Below the pieces are notes generated by a model. It saw only the letters and a program-made list of their open reading frames with translations, did not search any database and was not told the DNA's origin. Shown in pieces: positions 2,054-10,319 of a stretch of 64,000 bases of DNA. How positions within the stretch are numbered: position 1 is the first letter of the stretch; the number at the start of each line of letters is the position of its first letter. The translations under genes and the position numbers were made by a program. Where the stretch lies: the NCBI RefSeq assembly GCF_024521635.1, contig NW_026250418.1, positions 620,001-684,000 of the forward strand, given 5' to 3'. Source of the DNA: Tricharina praecox. Lineage: Eukaryota.

Positions 2054-3740
2054 ATGAAGTCGACCGCCGGGTGGTTGTGGACGAGTATCCTTTTCACTAT
2101 CACCACCGCTCTGGACACCGGCATCACCTATCCCAACAACACGCCTCCAAAAGGTGTCGATGTATGGTGCGGAAAGGCGTACAGGGCTACCGACAGTATG
2201 TACCTACGTACGCCATGATGATGGGGGACATAATGGCTAACTGCTGCGGTACAGAAGCATTCACCAGCCTCGTCGAAGCTGGTTGGCAACACCCTCCACC
2301 GCCCTCGAAAGAACCATTGCTGGAGTTGACTTGCCGCCCGCGGTTGAAGCCGTACGTAAAGGGCCTCTCGCCTCGGCCAGGGGTACTGTTCGATGCGAAG
2401 GTACACACTCCATTCCTCCAATTGTCCGTGACCTCGGTTGATGGCCTGGTCGAACGATAGCTATCCCACGACATCGGTAGTCCATTCGTCAATGCGACCC
2501 CTCCACAACGGATCTGGGTGAGCGCGTGGATCGGGTCCATATCACTCGGCGGGGGATATATGGACCTCGGCGGGCAGCTAGAGATACAATTCGCTGGGCT
2601 TGAAGAGCTCTCCACCCGAATGGAGGCGTATACCGTCGACTGCGAGGCGGCTGTGGGGCCAGCCGAAGCGCCGTTTGCAAGTGCGACCGCAGAGCTGTTC
2701 TGGCTGCCGCCGAATCCGTATGGTGGCTCCACGGTGCAGTTGGATACTAAGACGGATGAGCTGGTGTCAGCTTCTTTTCGTGGGCACAAGATCTTTCCGA
2801 TCGGGTATTACACGGGCTGGGGGAATTACCTGGCTGGCAACTGGAGTGATCTGGGGCATATCAAGAAGGCGGGCTTCACGATGGTGCATCCGATTCCCGG
2901 GGGCGGGCCTGCGAGTGTGGCTTGGGGCGAAGAGTCCGGCAGCTTGGAGAGGTTTCGCGAGTTTATGGATAAGGCACACGAGGTCGGTCTGTGGGTAATG
3001 TATGATATGCGCCATACATTTGCGTCCGCCGAGGAGCTGGAGGTACAGGTAAAGATGTTTCGGGGGCATCCGGCACTGCTGCTTTGGTATACTGCGGATG
3101 TGGGTGGTGGCCATTCCGTTCGCTGTGTGTAGATAAGGTGCTGACTGATGCCGAACAGGAACCAGATGGTCACAATAACCCAACCGATTCGACGCTTCTC
3201 GCGTACAACACCATCAGCGCCCTCGACGGCTACCACCCAATATCCTTCACCCCCAACTGCCAAAACTACTTCTTCACACAGTACGCGTCCGGCGCTGACA
3301 TAGTGATACCGGACGTCTATCCTGTGGGGCTGAACCCAACCTTCTCCAACGTGTACAACACTCCCTGCAACCGCACCTATGGTTGCTGCGGCTGCGATAA
3401 CTGTGCGGCTACACTGCAGGACCTTGGCACTCGAATTCTCGAGATGAAGGAGTACGCACGGTGTTCAGGAACGCACAAGACCTTTTGGGGCGTGGCTCAG
3501 GCCTTTGGGAATTCCGAGTTTTGGACGCGCATGCCTACCAAGGCTGAGATGGTTGAAATGAGTCGCGACGCCGTTGTCCGTGCGGGTGCGAAGGGACTGT
3601 TGTATTGGAGTGCGCCGACCACCCGCGAGATTTGGGAGGGCACGGCGGATGTGGCCAAGTGGATGAATGGCTACGCGGCGGAACCCGTCATCAGGATGGA
3701 GGAGGTGGGAGGGAAAGAGACAATCAAGAGTGAGCTGTAG
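2054..3740 (+). CDS. Secreted glycoside-hydrolase-like (TIM-barrel) protein of a conserved uncharacterised fungal family; 4 exons
   Basis: Signal peptide MKSTAGWLWTSILFTITTA. Predicted introns 2196-2254, 2401-2460 and 3100-3158 join the ORFs in frame. Motifs WCGKAY, FPIGYYT, VMYDMRH, LLLWYTAD|EPDG (NEP/DEP-like acid-base motif), DVYPVG and Cys-rich CNRTYGCCGCDNC. Confidence 0.75.
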
Positions 3741-4692
3741 GATGGCTTTACTTGGAGAAGCGTTGTTCTTATGCCTATTTTTGCGGAAGTCGTGTGGTGG
3801 ACTTTAATGCGTCTTTCTTTTGTCCCGCGCGTCAGAGCTGTTGAGCGGGAGTAAAGCCGGGGAGAGGACGGGAGGTGACACTGTGACGGTGTCCATCACT
3901 CTAGCTAGTCGTGGAAAACAAGTCATCGGACGGATGTCGTGCTTTCACAGTTCTCTCCTGGGACTGACCGATACATCCCGAGCTGTCACCTGTGTCCCAC
4001 TAGTTAGCGGGATATTCAGGCAACCGGCAACCCCACAGCAGATCACTACTTCCGACAGCTTACTCTCACCAGACCGACGGTCCGAAAACCTTGGACTCGG
4101 AAGGATGTAAATTGACGTTAACCTATCCCTTTGATTGTTTCCAGTGCCCCGAGCTACGGCACGGGGGGTGGAGAGACAGGCGGGTGGAGGCAACTAGTGT
4201 GTAGGTTATGATGTCGGGCTGATGACAAGTGGTATGGTGAGGCGACTGTGCGGCCGACTAAGAGCTCCCTCGCCGCCGCCGCACCACCTATGCCCGCACC
4301 ACAAGCCAGCCTTCTTCAGCCGGCTGATGGGAGGTTACTTGCAAGTAACCAGATTCGGACTACCCCCTGTGTCCCCCACTCGCCCCCCGTTGCCTTGAAA
4401 TATTTTTGACAAGGGAAGGGTTCGGGTTCCTTCCTGCCTGCGGGGCAGGCTCTGGAGTAGATTTTAATAATGCCTTGCCAGTCGTGTACCTACGTGTATA
4501 TGACGGAGCCCGAGGTGAGCTTCGTAGCAACAGGTACCCACACTCGCCTGATTATAGCCTAACGTAGCCCATTTGCCATCCGCCGTCCATCTTCCGCTCG
4601 GCTTCCTCTCCCCTCCCCCCCCCCCCCTCCCCCCTCCCCCTCCCACATACCTTTGACCTTTGACTCGCGACAATGAATGCGAACGTCCACCA

Positions 4693-7638
4693 ATGTCTCA
4701 ACATTACTATATGTCAATGTCGCCCAGCAAGTTGCATCAAATGCCCGCGACGCTTGTCCTGGGCGTGTCGATAATGCTGTGCACGCTGTCGAGTACGGCT
4801 GTCGCCCTCAGATTCATCTCCCGCCGCTACATACACCGCGGGGTCTCGGTTTCGGATTGGTTGATTCTCGTTGCGTTGGTGGGCACTCCTTAGACGGCAG
4901 TGAGGTACGGGGGGAGGAGGGGCGGTGTTTGGAAGGCATTGGTGTTGATGTTAATGGGGATATAGATTCTGGCGGTTTCTTTTTCAGTGGCGTTAATAGT
5001 AGGCACCAAATCTATGAATCCGAGGGCGAGGAGAATAGTGAGCCCAACTCCCCATTCACATTCGAAGGCAGCAGTGGATGCTGATATTTTTTCTACCAGT
5101 GCAGGTTCATCTATACTTTCCTCTTTGTATGATCTCTTTTTTTCTCCTCTGGTTCTGCCTATTCGCACCGGTGTAAACGGCTGATTCTTCCAGAATCCCA
5201 CAGCAGCAATGATAAAGAACTCCGTACTCCTCTACTACCAAGATCTCTTCTGGCGGTACCGTGCAGTGCACTGGATCGCGTGGGGGGTGTTAATAGTGGT
5301 CAACATCAGTGCCTTCACTGTATCGGTCGTGGTGTTACTACAATGCAAGCCCGTATATATCCCTATTCTCATCTCACCTCCAAAAAACCTCCCATGTTGA
5401 CTGGGTATGGGAAAGTTCTGGGTGGTGTTTGCGACGAGAGCACAAGACCGCCTTCCCCGGGGCTGGAAGTGCATCGATACCGTGAAACTGGTGTATGCGG
5501 CCGCCCCGCTCAATATCTGTACAGACTTTGCCCTGATCCTCATACCAATGCCCATATTGGCTTCGCTGCAGCTCCCCAGGAGACAGAAGATCACGCTGAT
5601 GCTGTTGTTTGGGCTGATTGGATTGTATGCCCTCTTCCCCACTTCCCCACTTTCGTTCTTCTGGGTCAGGAGGCGAGGGCTGATATCTGGCTGGCTGGCT
5701 GGGGAGTGGTATAGTACGGCGATCCTCGAAGTGATCCGCGCCTACTACTTCCAGAAAGCAAATCAAACCACAGAGTTTGGCCGAGAGGACGCTATCTCCT
5801 TCCTCTGGGCATCGATAACCGTTCACGTGGGCATCGTGGCCGTGTCCGCACCGATGGTGAAGCCGCTATTTACGCGGTGGAAACGGCTATTCGAGCTTGT
5901 CGTACATTATGTGAGCTCGAAACGATACAGAAGCTCTGAGGAAACGACGCCGGAGATTTTGCACCACAGGCTGTCGCACGAAGCTGGCGGGGATGATGGA
6001 CAGCTGGTCCGCGGGTCGCTGACGAGCGGCGGGCTGAGGCCCGATCTCGATATTGAGGATTATAGGGATATCAAGAAGGCGTGGCCGTTTTTGCCGTTAC
6101 TTTCAGGGCCGTTTTGTAGGTTCCCCAGACGAGTGGTGCGAGGGATGCTGATGGATTAGTCATGTGGGGGATTACGTTCATTCTCATCGCTGTTATTCAA
6201 AAGAAGCTGGAGGCGATAGGCGTGGCTACCGATACTCGGTCGCTGGGATTGCATATAGCATACTACGGGTGAGATACCTTTCCCGGTGCACTCCATGGTG
6301 GTGGTGGTGGTGGTGGTGGTGGTGGTGGTGCTCATAGGTATGCACAGATCCCACAGCATATCTGCCCTCACCCTCGGTGGCTGGATCTTCCGTAGTTACG
6401 GCTTCAAAATGGCCATCTCGATTGGCCTCTTCCTCTACGGTATGGGAAGCATGTGCTTCTGGCCCAGCTCCATCCAAGAATCGTACCCAGGCATGGTAAT
6501 TAGCATGGTGGTGGTAGGCGCCGGCAGCGGGTCGATGGAGATCGCAGCCAATGTTTTCGGCATCCTCCTCGGACCGCAAGAATACGCCGAGATCCGCCTT
6601 AACATCCTACAAGGCTTCCAAGCTGTCGGCGGCCTACTCGCAATCCTAACCGAAACTACCGTAGTGTACGAAAGCATCGGCGGAATGACCTACTCGACTC
6701 TGGTGGACGTACAATGGATCCTCCTCGCCTGCGGAATCGCCGCGTTTATCCTCGCGGGCGTGTTCCTCTGCGTGAACCTCCCCGAGCTTCGTGGCCTAGA
6801 CCCTCCCAACACCTTCTATGCCTCGACCAAAAACATTTACACCTCCTCCTTCGGCCCGGGCTTCGCTCTGTCCGTGTTTACACTCTTCTGGTACGTCGGC
6901 GGTCAAGAAATTACCACCCTCTATGCCCGCGGCTTCCTGGTCGAAAACCCGCACACGAACGTTCACGAAGCCCTCGGGATCGAAAAGTCCGCGCAAGCGC
7001 TCTTCGCAGCGGGGCGCTTCATCGCCGCAGCAATAATGCTGATCATCCGGCCGCGGTTCCTGCTGCTAGCATTCACGCTCGGACTGATCGTGACCGCAGC
7101 GATCGGCATGGCGGGGCGGCACCCGACACACGACGGGATATGGCTGCTGCTGAACTCATTCTTCCAGGGAATGGCGTACCCGACAATAATCGCAATGGCC
7201 ATACGCGGGCTAGCAAAGGGCGACATCAAGGCCGCCAGCATATGGCTCGTCAGCTCGCAGCTCGGCGCCGCCGCTGTCCCCTGCATCTTCCACGCCGTCA
7301 AGATCACCCGCGGCTCCGTCTACGCGCTGTCCGTGGTCGTGGCAGCGTTCGCCGTCATGCTCCCGCTGCCGGTATACCTTATGGTCAGGAATAATGAGCG
7401 AGAAAGGACTAGACGCGTCGATGAGTGCCAGTTGACGGCGAAGGGCTGTGGTTGTGCCGATGGCTGTAAGAGTGGGTGTGCGGCGGCAAACGCGGTGCTC
7501 AGAACTTGTGCCGAGAATGTTAGGCGGCGCAGTGGGCATGGCGCCCCCGGCTTCCTCAAGACGCGCGAAGATGATGTTAGGAGGAGAAGTGGTGGGAGTG
7601 AGGCGGGCATGGTGGAGGCCGGGATGGGGTTTCCTTGA
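4693..7638 (+). CDS. Fusion protein: PTH11-like/fungal rhodopsin-domain 7-TM region + FucP/glucose-galactose-type MFS transporter (~817 aa, 8 exons)
   Basis: Predicted exons 4693-4878, 4966-5037, 5100-5126, 5194-5352, 5416-5624, 5715-6115, 6160-6268 and 6348-7638 total 2454 nt, open to the TGA at 7636-7638. Rhodopsin-domain motifs: VALRFISRR..SDWLILVA, NPTAAMIKNSVLLYY, LQCKP, NICTDFALILIPMP..LQLPRRQK. FucP motifs: PFFMWG, SLGLHIAYYG, RSYGFKMAISIGLFLYG, MEIAANVF, RLNILQGFQAVG, FWYVGGQE, GRF. Confidence 0.8.
6296..6330. repeat. (TGG/GTG)n microsatellite inside predicted intron 6269-6347
   Basis: About 11-12 perfect triplets; they produce the spurious poly-V/poly-H/poly-T ORF translations. Confidence 0.9.
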
Positions 7639-7933
7639 TGTTCATGGTGGTATCACTCGTGCTGGGTTTTTGGAACGGGCTTAGAAAGGTGTTATGTATT
7701 ATCAATTTAATGAGTACGTCGTCATATCATACGGTTATAGTCTTGTTTCTCACAAAGGCCGAATATGAGTATGATGAAACGAAAATACAAAAAACAAATG
7801 TATTAACCATTCCATCTATAGTAGAGATGGTCTCAGAAGTAAAGCGACCCATTCGCCTTGTGCTATCTAATTAATCATGTAAAGTACATTGCGGCCATGG
7901 CTAGGACCTTCTAAAGCTTTTATTGAGTTGCGA

Positions 7934-10319
7934 TCAAATCTCCTCCGAAGCTTTTCCCTCATCCGCGCGCTTCAGCTTCACCCGGCCCTTGTCGTCGATA
8001 AACGGCTCGTAGCCATGTTTATCAAGCACCTCGCTGGGCACAACTTCCCTAGCGTTGAGCTCCTCGACGATCGCCTGGTTCTCCTTGTTACCCTGCAACA
8101 GAGCGCGAAGACACAGGATGGCGTGTTCACGGATATCTGTCAAAATCTATCAGTATGGCCACACACTCAAATGGGGAAATGATACGCACAAGGGTTGTCA
8201 TCATCGATCTTGCACTGGTTCAGGACAACCGGCAATCCCGCCTTCTCCCTGACCAGGTCCTGAACCTCACGATTCTGCCAGGCAAGTGTGCTGATGAGGA
8301 TTACGATGAAGCGCTTGATATTCGGCCAAGTGAACTCGTCTGGTTCAACCAGCTCCCTATCGTTATCATCATCGTCTGCCTCACCATCCGATTCTTCCTC
8401 ACCTTCTGCATCATCCTCGCCACTGCCGCCGATATCGAACGGACGTTCCACCAGATGCTTCGCCTCCTGCTTCTTGGGGGGTTCCTCCTTCTTTGGCGCT
8501 TCGGCGGTCGCGGGAGGGGAGGGCTTGTTTGGCTTTGTGGCAAGGTAGCGCGGGATGGCTTGGTCCAGCTCGCCCAGTAGACGGACCAGATCGGCGACCA
8601 GTCCCTTCTCGTGCGTGGAGAGCGTCTTCTTTGCCTCTTCGTCCTCCGAGAAGAGGACAAACAGCTCTAGGAATTGATACAGGCCTTCATAAATCCTGTC
8701 CAGGTCCCACAAGCTGAGCTCGAACGACTCCTTGCTCTCCTTTCCGGTGCGGATTGCGCCCTGCAACTGAATGATCTTGATGACGGGGTTCACTACCTGC
8801 TTCCGGAAGGTGTTGACGAAGAAAGTGGGAATTGCACTCTCGATAACGGGTGGGATATCGGCAGCTTCCTCATCACTTCCGGGACGAACGTTGGTAGCAG
8901 CAACTTCAATGGCGATGGTGGCGGCGTCTTTCGGTGGCTCAGTATGAACGGGAAAGCCCATAGTGGAAGGCGACTGCATTGCCGGTATTGGCGAGCCGCG
9001 GGGCCATTCTCCCTGGTTATGCTGAGGAAGACCGTTTTGTGGTCGGTAGACAGAAACCAAAAGTTTCAAGAGAACCGATTGAGCTGGGGTGACAATGTCC
9101 TTGTCGTCCCGAAAGCACTCGTACGCATATGGGATCAGTCCATTGAGAAGGATAGCCTCCACAATCTGTCCCAGCACGCGGAAGCAGAAGTCTTCTTCAT
9201 CCACCTCCCAAGCACCCAAGAACACCAGGACTTCGCGCAAAAGACTGCGTCCGTATCCCTGCGCCAGCATCAACTTGCATCTAACCGACTGCATGGCTTC
9301 ATCCGATCCATCGAACGCCACAATCCCGCTCTGCAGGATCATGAGTAATGGCTCAATCTCGTCGGGCTGCAGAAGCCGGGGCACATCGGTAAGAAAGCCA
9401 GGTTTGTAGTACTTGGCGTTGAACCCAGCCGATAGCGAGTTGCACTTAGCAGCCGTTTCATTGTGGTGAGCAACAGTACCACCGACAAATCCGACACCGA
9501 CGCCGGAACCGGGTGATGGTTGGGGTTTGGTGGATTTTCGAGCTTTGCTCTTGCTGGTGGCCTTGGCTATCAACGGGGAAGGGCCGGTGGTGTGGATCGA
9601 GGAAGGTGTGCCGAACAGGTGCAGCCAGATGTGAAGCTTCCTGGTTTCATTGCAGGTCATGAGGTTATTGAAGAATTGCAATGCCGTAATCATCACCTTC
9701 TTGTCTGTGGTAGCAATGTCAGCAACTTCCGGGAGTGAGAACCAATGGGGCTAGGAATGCATACATCCTCCCTTCATCTGCAATTCTTTGTCGTGGGTCG
9801 GCTTGTCTAAGTTTGGTAGAATCGGTTTGCTCGCTTTTTCGACACAGATTGAAAGAAGCCGCCGGATCTCTGCATCGAATCCCTGCTCTCTGCACCATTC
9901 TCAGTCAACTGTAAATACACCGTGACGGGGTATGGAGCTCATACGCTGCGAGGTTTTGGGCCCGCTCCTTCGCCGCAAGCAAATTGCGTGCCAGTAAAAC
10001 CAAGTCCCAGACTTTCGGTAGCAGGTGGTGTTTGTTCAATGTGAGCTGGTCGTTTCCAGCCAGCAAGGTCTCAGTCATGGCTTTCCACACTCGCTCCGAG
10101 AACCCCAGAATTTCCCTACCACATTTAGCATGCCCCGCACATTCAGGAGAAATTGACCATCGCCTACCTCGCCTCGCGACTCCTCTGTGTCTGCTTGACT
10201 ACATTCTTGAGTTCCGCATCTCCAGTCGATTCGACGGTGGGAATCAGAATGCCGGGATGCGTGAAGCTCGCCTCGACGCCGAAGAGGAGGGTCAGGAGCA
10301 GATCCTCGAGAAGAGCCAT
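7934..10319 (-). CDS. CTR86: Ataxin-10 / Ctr86-like ARM-repeat protein (multi-exon)
   Basis: C-terminal ataxin-10 domain: WPNIKRFIVILISTL..NREVQDLVREKAGLPVVLNQCKIDDDNP|..IREHAILCLRALLQGNKENQ. Upstream exons contain LVLLARNLLAAKERAQNLAA and ALQFFNNLMTCNE. Start at MALLEDLLL is probable, not certain. Confidence 0.85.

Follow-up and report, generated by a model that had tools for sequence, protein, structure and literature searches.

A fusion of a PTH11-like seven-transmembrane domain and a FucP-type carrier in Tricharina praecox and other Pezizomycotina

Several fungal systems use the transporter fold for sensing, among them the yeast transceptors and sensors Gap1, Pho84, Mep2, Snf3 and Rgt2, and the Neurospora proteins CDT-1/2, HGT-1/2 and RCO-3 (in part according to the accessible text of PMC3824880 and PMC12892961). 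All of these signal via the transporter fold or its tail. Snf3 and Rgt2 carry long regulatory tails, and we know of none among these proteins that is covalently joined to a receptor-like seven-transmembrane (7TM) domain. To our knowledge, filamentous ascomycetes have no larger class of putative receptors than the PTH11-like proteins, nearly all of which are orphans. Here, we describe a gene of Tricharina praecox that almost certainly encodes both kinds of domain in one product and belongs to a conserved family of such fusions. It lies on the plus strand at 4693-7638 of a stretch of 64,000 nucleotides (nt) (RefSeq assembly GCF_024521635.1, contig NW_026250418.1, 620,001-684,000 of the forward strand), which is hereafter the window and to which all coordinates refer.

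The closest counterparts of its product are proteins of Pezizomycotina in which PF20684 (Fung_rhodopsin) is fused to MFS_1 (PF07690; MFS, major facilitator superfamily). It shares with them the domain order, the carrier clade, and a disordered linker and tail, and is a member of this family, whose proteins go by database names as disparate as 'fucose permease' (Trichoderma reesei RUT C-30, 986 amino acids (aa)), 'MFS monosaccharide transporter-like protein' (many Dothideomycetes), and 'Rhodopsin domain-containing protein' (Fusarium, Aspergillus). Relative to the rest of the family, its best match is just 46-47% identical, it lacks the GLGxH loop, it has Ala at the place of Asp46 of Escherichia coli FucP, and its linker is shorter (about 60 aa) and devoid of the consensus FFDFVN motif. 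FucP (3o7q), of the FHS family, is the sole sequence relative with a solved structure and the best structural match of the model considered below; Glu135, Arg154, Gln159, and Asn139 are kept in T. praecox, whereas Asp46 and Asn162 are replaced by Ala and Gln, and a 337-aa N-terminal 7TM domain plus linker is added. With Magnaporthe oryzae Pth11 and the PTH11-like class, it has in common the Pfam domain, the seven helices and, going by the accessible text of PMC12842992, a restriction of class and fusion alike to Pezizomycotina. Unlike Pth11, it has no CFEM domain, and its 7TM domain is followed by a whole transporter domain.

Gene structure and domain organization

Transcript data came from the contigs of two public runs belonging to two studies (X1 and X2), aligned to 3000-10000 of the window; each run matches about 0.75 of the sampled words, and the RNA kind of both is a guess on record. 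In three soil metatranscriptomes, almost none of the sampled words of the locus were present. One contig per run spans the whole locus (X1 record 2, 2567 nt; X2 record 6, 2552 nt), with zero mismatches to the window, and both contigs show the spliced joints 4877/8>4965/6, 5037>5100, 5126>5194, 5352>5416, 5624>5715, and 6115>6160, every one of them GT..AG. The last of these, across intron 6, carries a 108-letter side in one contig of each run. The contig pieces 5715-6115 and 6347-7691 are separated by 108 letters, and the exon between them, 6160-6268, measures 109 nt, one base being ambiguous. The joint 6268>6348 is unlisted because the GGT repeat at 6289-6338 is skipped in the contig alignment; we infer it because the contig record coordinates fit an exon at 6160-6268. 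Bin depths over introns 6 and 7 in X1 (37.6 and 33.7, against 48.4) fit zero intron-retaining contigs. Over three adjacent genes, 11 of the 11 listed joints have GT..AG or CT..AC ends, and we therefore take the contigs of both runs to be transcripts; the long ones end within intergenic stretches.

The transcript starts at about 4633, as implied by record length, and ends 40-53 nt past the stop codon. Joined, its eight exons amount to 2454 nt, that is, 817 codons with one stop, at the terminus. The parts of the gene are as follows:

4693..4878, plus strand: exon 1 (aa 1-62), with the start codon and 7TM helices 1-2; its joint is present in X1 and X2, and it aligns to helices 1-2 of the relatives
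4966..5037, plus strand: exon 2 (aa 63-86), bounded by joints 4965/6 and 5037>5100; the loop that follows it is without the GLGxH motif
5100..5126, plus strand: exon 3, a 27-nt micro-exon (aa 87-95, 9 codons) within the 7TM domain; both joints have a 27-letter side in X1 and X2
5194..5352, plus strand: exon 4 (aa 96-148), matching positions 67-119 of the Fung_rhodopsin profile; contig pieces 5194-5352
5416..5624, plus strand: exon 5 (aa 149-218), matching positions 129-180 of the Fung_rhodopsin profile; contig pieces 5416-5624
5715..6115, plus strand: exon 6 (aa 218-352), with 7TM helices 6-7, the linker, and the first half of carrier helix 1; contig pieces 5715-6115
5893-6072, plus strand: linker (aa 278-337), predicted to be cytoplasmic
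6116..6159, plus strand: intron 6, 44 nt, GT..AG, holding the sole in-frame stop between the two domains
6160..6268, plus strand: exon 7 (aa 352-388), with the rest of carrier helix 1 and the start of helix 2; Ala362 at 6189-6191
6269..6347, plus strand: intron 7, GT..AG and 79 nt long, which contains a (GGT)n run at 6289-6338; implied by contig coordinates and bin depths
6348..7638, plus strand: exon 8 (aa 388-817 and the stop), with carrier helices 2-12 (to aa 747, at 7425) and a 70-aa tail; contigs 6347-7691 and 6347-7678
6538-6540, plus strand: Glu452, the counterpart of FucP Glu135

At the junction, the stop-to-stop frame 5401-6159 closes at a TAG (6157-6159) that doubles as the 3' end of the 44-nt intron, which opens with GTAGGT at 6116 and has a CTGAT branch-like site. 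Splicing 6115>6160 yields GPF, with a split TTC codon, followed by MWG; splicing 6268>6348 yields AYYG, with a split GGA codon, followed by SHSISAL. No in-frame Met occurs between M265, in helix 7 of the 7TM domain, and M353, inside carrier helix 1, so that the carrier is without a start of its own on this mRNA. That the locus instead holds two adjacent genes, joined in the contigs by read-through or an assembly artefact, is extremely improbable. A contig across two genes does not prove a single transcript, and the RNA status of the runs is guessed; however, a GT..AG intron is spliced out at the junction, which brings the two parts into frame and makes carrier helix 1 complete, the carrier has no Met start, the same contig structure recurs in two runs of two studies, and the architecture is found as a single polypeptide in many other fungi (58 confirmed by Pfam and 120 listed, as detailed below).

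Pfam was run on single exons, with gathering cut-offs of 27 bits for PF20684 and 33.4 bits for MFS_1. PF20684 matched exon 5 with 53.6 bits (E 2.9e-14) and exon 4 with 30.6 bits, and scored under the cut-off on exon 6 (21 bits, profile positions 186-237); no CFEM domain was recovered from any single exon, and exon 1 had no Pfam match at E<=0.1. Exon 8 alone scored 26.7 bits with MFS_1, under the cut-off because this exon lacks carrier helices 1-2 and the domain is incomplete. In a sequence search of the PDB with phmmer, the same exon matched only the E. coli FucP family (3o7q and 3o7p; E 1.2e-18 over 327 residues for 3o7q). A profile made from 31 full-length fused relatives matches the spliced protein at aa 19-277 and 338-747. 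The 817-aa product is thus laid out as a 7TM domain (aa ~19-277), a linker of ~60 aa, a 12-helix MFS domain (aa ~338-747), and a basic, Ser-rich tail. The helices of the 7TM domain begin at about aa 19, and its hydropathy profile has six clear segments and a weaker helix 3. The loop that bears GLGxH after helix 2 in the relatives is replaced by a 12-residue gap, its glycines G76 and G78 being invariant in 31 of 31 aligned full-length relatives; the exon region around the gap is backed by the RNA contigs, the 27-nt micro-exon included.

For the fold, AlphaFold2 was run with a 31-row alignment on P0007, a full-length relative of 786 aa from Rhizina undulata. The model (mean predicted local distance difference test score 83.8; predicted template-modelling score (pTM) 0.83) has 7 + 12 long helices, with disorder at 285-319 and at the end. 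Its best PDB match by Foldseek is FucP 3o7q, with a template-modelling score of 0.83 on the target, and only MFS structures occur among the 46 matches listed (to rank 50) for the whole 786-aa model, the 7TM part being covered only within the whole. As a pTM of 0.83 is high for two separate domains, the model suggests that the two (~280 and ~440 residues) pack side by side in a defined manner. The N-terminus of an MFS domain must be cytoplasmic; since an odd number of helices, seven, precedes the linker, the linker would be cytoplasmic too, and the predicted topology is coherent.

The preliminary description of this locus, drawn from the sequence of the window, agrees with these results in most structural respects. 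It had proposed a single gene in which an intron at 6116-6159 removes the stop between the domains, as is now seen in the 6115>6160 joint in contigs of both runs and the 817-codon frame, and a second intron at 6269-6347, as the contig coordinates for 6268>6348 imply. The motifs it expected to be rebuilt, PF/FMWG and AYYG/SHSISAL, are read across the two joints, and the carrier, as it held, has no separate start, there being no Met from M265 to M353. Its order of a PTH11-like domain followed by a FucP/FHS-type MFS domain is matched by PF20684 on exons 4-5 and by FucP (E 1.2e-18) on exon 8, and its estimate of about 19 helices by the 7 + 12 of the P0007 model.

The 70-aa C-terminal tail (7426-7635) has two RRRS motifs (7522-7533 and 7579-7590) and a stretch with seven Cys in about 30 residues, which is absent from the seven relatives aligned with T. 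praecox. Across the family, linkers and tails are long and poorly conserved. Counted over 31 family tails, R[RK]x[ST] is present 24 times; shuffled tails gave 6.1 +/- 2.4, and none of 500 shuffles reached the observed number, kinship being ignored; two of these motifs are found in the T. praecox tail.

Extent and origin of the fusion family

A HMMER search with the carrier exon against 1.84 billion representatives yielded 1180 matches at E<=1e-3. The N-terminal 285 residues of the T. praecox protein are also matched by 56 of the best 150 carrier relatives, the fused count rising to 58 of 152 once two word-index matches are joined to these. Pfam recovered PF20684 in all 58 and MFS_1 in 50 (E<=1e-5). 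A word-index search with the 31-member profile gave 1218 matches at E<=1e-20; the best 120 listed all have PF20684, with PF07690 also in 117, and those past the listed 120 may include single-domain proteins. The named sources among the 120 include Aspergillus, Penicillium, Fonsecaea, Fusarium, Neurospora, Trichoderma reesei, Diaporthe, and Gaeumannomyces, and further Bipolaris, Septoria, Cadophora, Lachnellula, and several lichen fungi, which we take to span the Eurotio-, Sordario-, Dothideo-, Leotio- and Lecanoromycetes. The nearest relatives are from Pezizomycetes, with Trichophaea, Pyronema, and Sphaerosporella at 43-47% identity, followed by Rhizina and Choiromyces at 39%. No relative above 47% identity was found in the searched protein collections, and because the best match stands at 47%, the T. 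praecox protein itself is not among them.

An early word-index search had returned only two fused proteins, and the fusion could have been taken to be rare; this was an index limit, and the HMMER and profile searches showed many. The preliminary description surmised that similar fusions may exist among predicted ascomycete proteins and knew of no functional characterization; the surmise holds for the 58 Pfam-confirmed and 120 listed proteins, for which we found no functional study. The fusion is far from rare. Judged from these sequence comparisons, carriers of this clade are as a rule fused across Pezizomycotina. The T. praecox protein comes from a Pezizomycete lineage and is a divergent member of a large family that shares its architecture and is spread over the whole of Pezizomycotina. 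As the architecture is already annotated by Pfam in many public proteomes, the gene adds such a member rather than a new kind. In the full-text literature, with subscription journals and supplements outside the scope of the search, we found no description or test of a PTH11-FucP fusion.

We computed a likelihood tree from 81 carrier domains that were nearly complete, with E. coli FucP as the root. All 45 fused rows fall in one clade of 66 rows, with a support of 99 in the Shimodaira-Hasegawa-like approximate likelihood ratio test, and 0 of the 15 outside rows is fused. The named outside rows comprise bacteria, a chytrid, basidiomycetes (Mycena, Ramaria), the yeast Scheffersomyces, and one Aspergillus fumigatus protein. 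Within the clade, 21 rows were scored as not fused: one of these, P0153, is a full fusion; 11 begin in the helix-7 or linker part of the profile and, as their starts lie inside that part, are truncated models; and nine begin at the carrier, one of them flagged 'partial' by its source. PTH11-like proteins have been reported only from Pezizomycotina, as far as the accessible text of PMC12842992 goes. From the shape of the tree, we infer that the 7TM module was probably added to an ancestral fungal FHS permease a single time, close to the base of Pezizomycotina.

The outside protein from A. fumigatus (P0053, 381 aa) is a stand-alone FHS permease that groups tightly with the Mycena (basidiomycete) proteins; it may be a retained second paralogue or the product of horizontal transfer.

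T. praecox falls in a set of four rows (support 100) nested in one of six (97), which is in turn nested in the 66-row fused clade (99), and together with three proteins of Pyronemataceae it sits on a long stem branch (0.74). This branch, along with the loss of the GLGxH loop, the divergence of carrier helix 1, and a contig word depth about one-tenth that of the two neighbours (a poor measure), could be read as lineage-specific decay, with the fused gene of T. praecox still transcribed while drifting towards loss of function. We consider this very improbable: the 817-codon frame is open over seven correctly spliced introns, the 27-nt micro-exon included, Glu452, Arg471, Gln476, and Asn456 are kept, and three other Pezizales genera of the subclade match at 43-47% identity over the entire carrier. 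Decay and the two-gene artefact are thus both unlikely accounts of the locus.

Carrier residues and the proposed mechanism

Key residues were mapped in an alignment of the T. praecox protein with E. coli FucP and 79 relatives, with 46 fused rows and 14 outside rows:

FucP Asp46: Ala362 in T. praecox; in the 46 fused rows, D 10, N 19, G 8, A 3, S 2, F 2, T 1, other 1; D in 13 of the 14 outside rows
FucP Glu135: Glu452 in T. praecox; kept in 44 of 46 fused and 13 of 14 outside rows
FucP Arg154: Arg471 in T. praecox; kept in 46 of 46 fused and 14 of 14 outside rows
FucP Gln159: Gln476 in T. praecox; kept in 40 of 46 fused and 13 of 14 outside rows
FucP Asn139: Asn456 in T. praecox; kept in 42 of 46 fused and 12 of 14 outside rows
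FucP Asn162: Gln479 in T. praecox; Gln in 38 of 46 fused rows, Asn in 9 of 14 outside rows

Asp46 has thus been lost in 36 of the 46 fused rows, and the four rows of the T. praecox subclade have A, D, S, and N at its place. Carrier helix 1 of T. praecox is atypical, with Phe and Ile at the places equivalent to Tyr42 and Gly43. In FucP, Asp46 is needed for proton-driven transport; the roles of Asp46 and Glu135 are given here after the accessible text of PMC3824880, which cites Dang et al. With Glu135, Arg154, Gln159, and Asn139 kept and Asp46 lost, the cavity appears preserved and the FucP-type proton relay gone. The preliminary description had assigned the carrier to a family of sugar:H+ symporters and had pointed to the acidic residues of FucP; one of these, Glu135, is indeed retained as Glu452, but the other has become Ala362 and is lost in most of the fused relatives, and a plain symporter of the FucP kind is accordingly unlikely.

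What the fused protein does is most likely still a matter of sugar: the residue pattern points to an FHS-type sugar carrier, or at least a sugar binder, that would lack FucP-type proton coupling. Given the retention of the cavity residues matching Glu135, Arg154, Gln159, and Asn139, we propose that the MFS part would still bind and carry a small sugar, L-fucose or a related hexose. Deprived of the Asp46 proton relay, it would act as a facilitator or use some other coupling, and the 7TM module tethered to it would lie alongside in the membrane as a built-in regulatory or sensing partner. The tail, rich in RRxS, would be a likely target of basophilic kinases. The explanation as a whole, namely one fused gene, a single origin of the family, and a sugar carrier or facilitator with a 7TM partner, is the one towards which we lean slightly; its mechanistic part, read from residue conservation, could about equally well hold or fail. 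The 'transceptor' of the preliminary description, in the sense of sensing coupled to transport, is for this protein a hypothetical role.

The chief competitor is a receptor that does not transport, in which the MFS domain would have been turned into a ligand-binding sensor, as in yeast Snf3 and Rgt2, signaling via the 7TM domain, the tails, or both. We regard this as rather unlikely, though it has several observations on its side. The Asp of the proton relay is lost in T. praecox as in 36 of the 46 fused rows, and within the four-row subclade its place varies as if unconstrained; conservation is low in the long linkers and tails, which bear basophilic-kinase motifs; and transceptor or sensor roles of other fungal MFS proteins are discussed in the accessible text of PMC12892961. 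The strong retention of the cavity residues and of the full twelve-helix fold might seem to count against a pure sensor, but a carrier needs both as well, so that this does not discriminate. The loss of Asp46 alone does not stop facilitated diffusion. FUR1, the fucose regulator of T. reesei, induces protein 78833, a 'putative L-fucose permease', together with fucosidases (accessible text of PMC12370193), and the protein is also induced on cellulose and sophorose (accessible text of PMC3998047). Co-induction by FUR1 would suit a role in uptake if protein 78833 were the fused 986-aa protein.

Several points weigh against the carrier or facilitator that we favour. A non-transporting sensor would account for the loss of Asp46 just as well, and the residue counts, coming from one clade compared with its outgroup, amount to one evolutionary event and not 46. 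We found no transport, binding or signaling data for any family member in the literature. The fold and the helix counts are those of a relative with 39% carrier-exon identity and not of the T. praecox protein, and the latter is, by alignment and tree, an unusually divergent copy, with its GLGxH loop lost, a stem branch of 0.74, and changes at the Tyr42 and Gly43 equivalents. R[RK]x[ST] is present in just 14 of the 31 tails, its enrichment being uncorrected for kinship. As for the transcripts, the contigs may also accommodate an extra internal transcription start.

A bolder extension would make the fusion an obligate sensing machine dating from the base of Pezizomycotina, in which the 7TM domain would sense the sugar occupancy of a proton-uncoupled permease and relay it to a G-protein and cyclic AMP-protein kinase A (PKA) pathway, with the PKA-type sites of the tail closing a feedback loop. 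We hold this to be decidedly unlikely. If true, it would be the first receptor-like 7TM domain hard-wired to a solute carrier and would give the orphan PTH11-like class its first ligand logic, with 7TM domains as partners of transporters. Irrespective of mechanism, the permanent joining of a PTH11-like domain to a sugar-permease fold across Pezizomycotina is a natural experiment on the role of such domains. The family is easily overlooked, as annotators name its members 'fucose permease', and receptor inventories that filter for exactly seven helices would be expected to miss it. Both the family in its entirety and the loss of Asp46 that followed the fusion seem to have received little study; the latter provides a concrete hypothesis that is testable in Neurospora, Aspergillus or Trichoderma, to which the T. 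praecox copy contributes only a divergent example from an early-branching lineage.

Sequence features around the gene and its neighbours

Two upstream ATGs, at 4673 and 4677, lie within the transcript, out of frame and 14-20 nt 5' of the start at 4693; they may form short upstream reading frames, or translation may in truth begin at an in-frame Met further on (aa 7, 9 or 17). Just 5' of the inferred transcript start at about 4633 lies a C-rich tract (4596-4650) with C runs and few T, at which hundreds of short contigs with poly-C loose ends align and the X1 bin depth reaches up to 9477. The (GGT)n run within intron 7 is a microsatellite of about 16 units (6289-6338).

The flanking genes give no functional hint. 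Upstream, a transcribed gene on the plus strand (3000-4221) has an intron at 3100-3158. Its last exon encodes 192 aa, among them a Cys-rich stretch, CCGCDNC, and gave no Pfam match at E<=0.01. Several contigs with many differences and with loose ends on both sides fall on the intergenic stretch 4124-4420, which looks like a dispersed repeat or the site of transcripts from related copies elsewhere. Downstream, on the minus strand, is an ataxin-10-domain gene (7862-9945; Pfam Atx10homo_assoc, over two exons) from which introns at 8137-8189, 9705-9764, and 9890-9944 are spliced out; X1 alone shows a further joint, 8339>8403, which could reflect alternative splicing.

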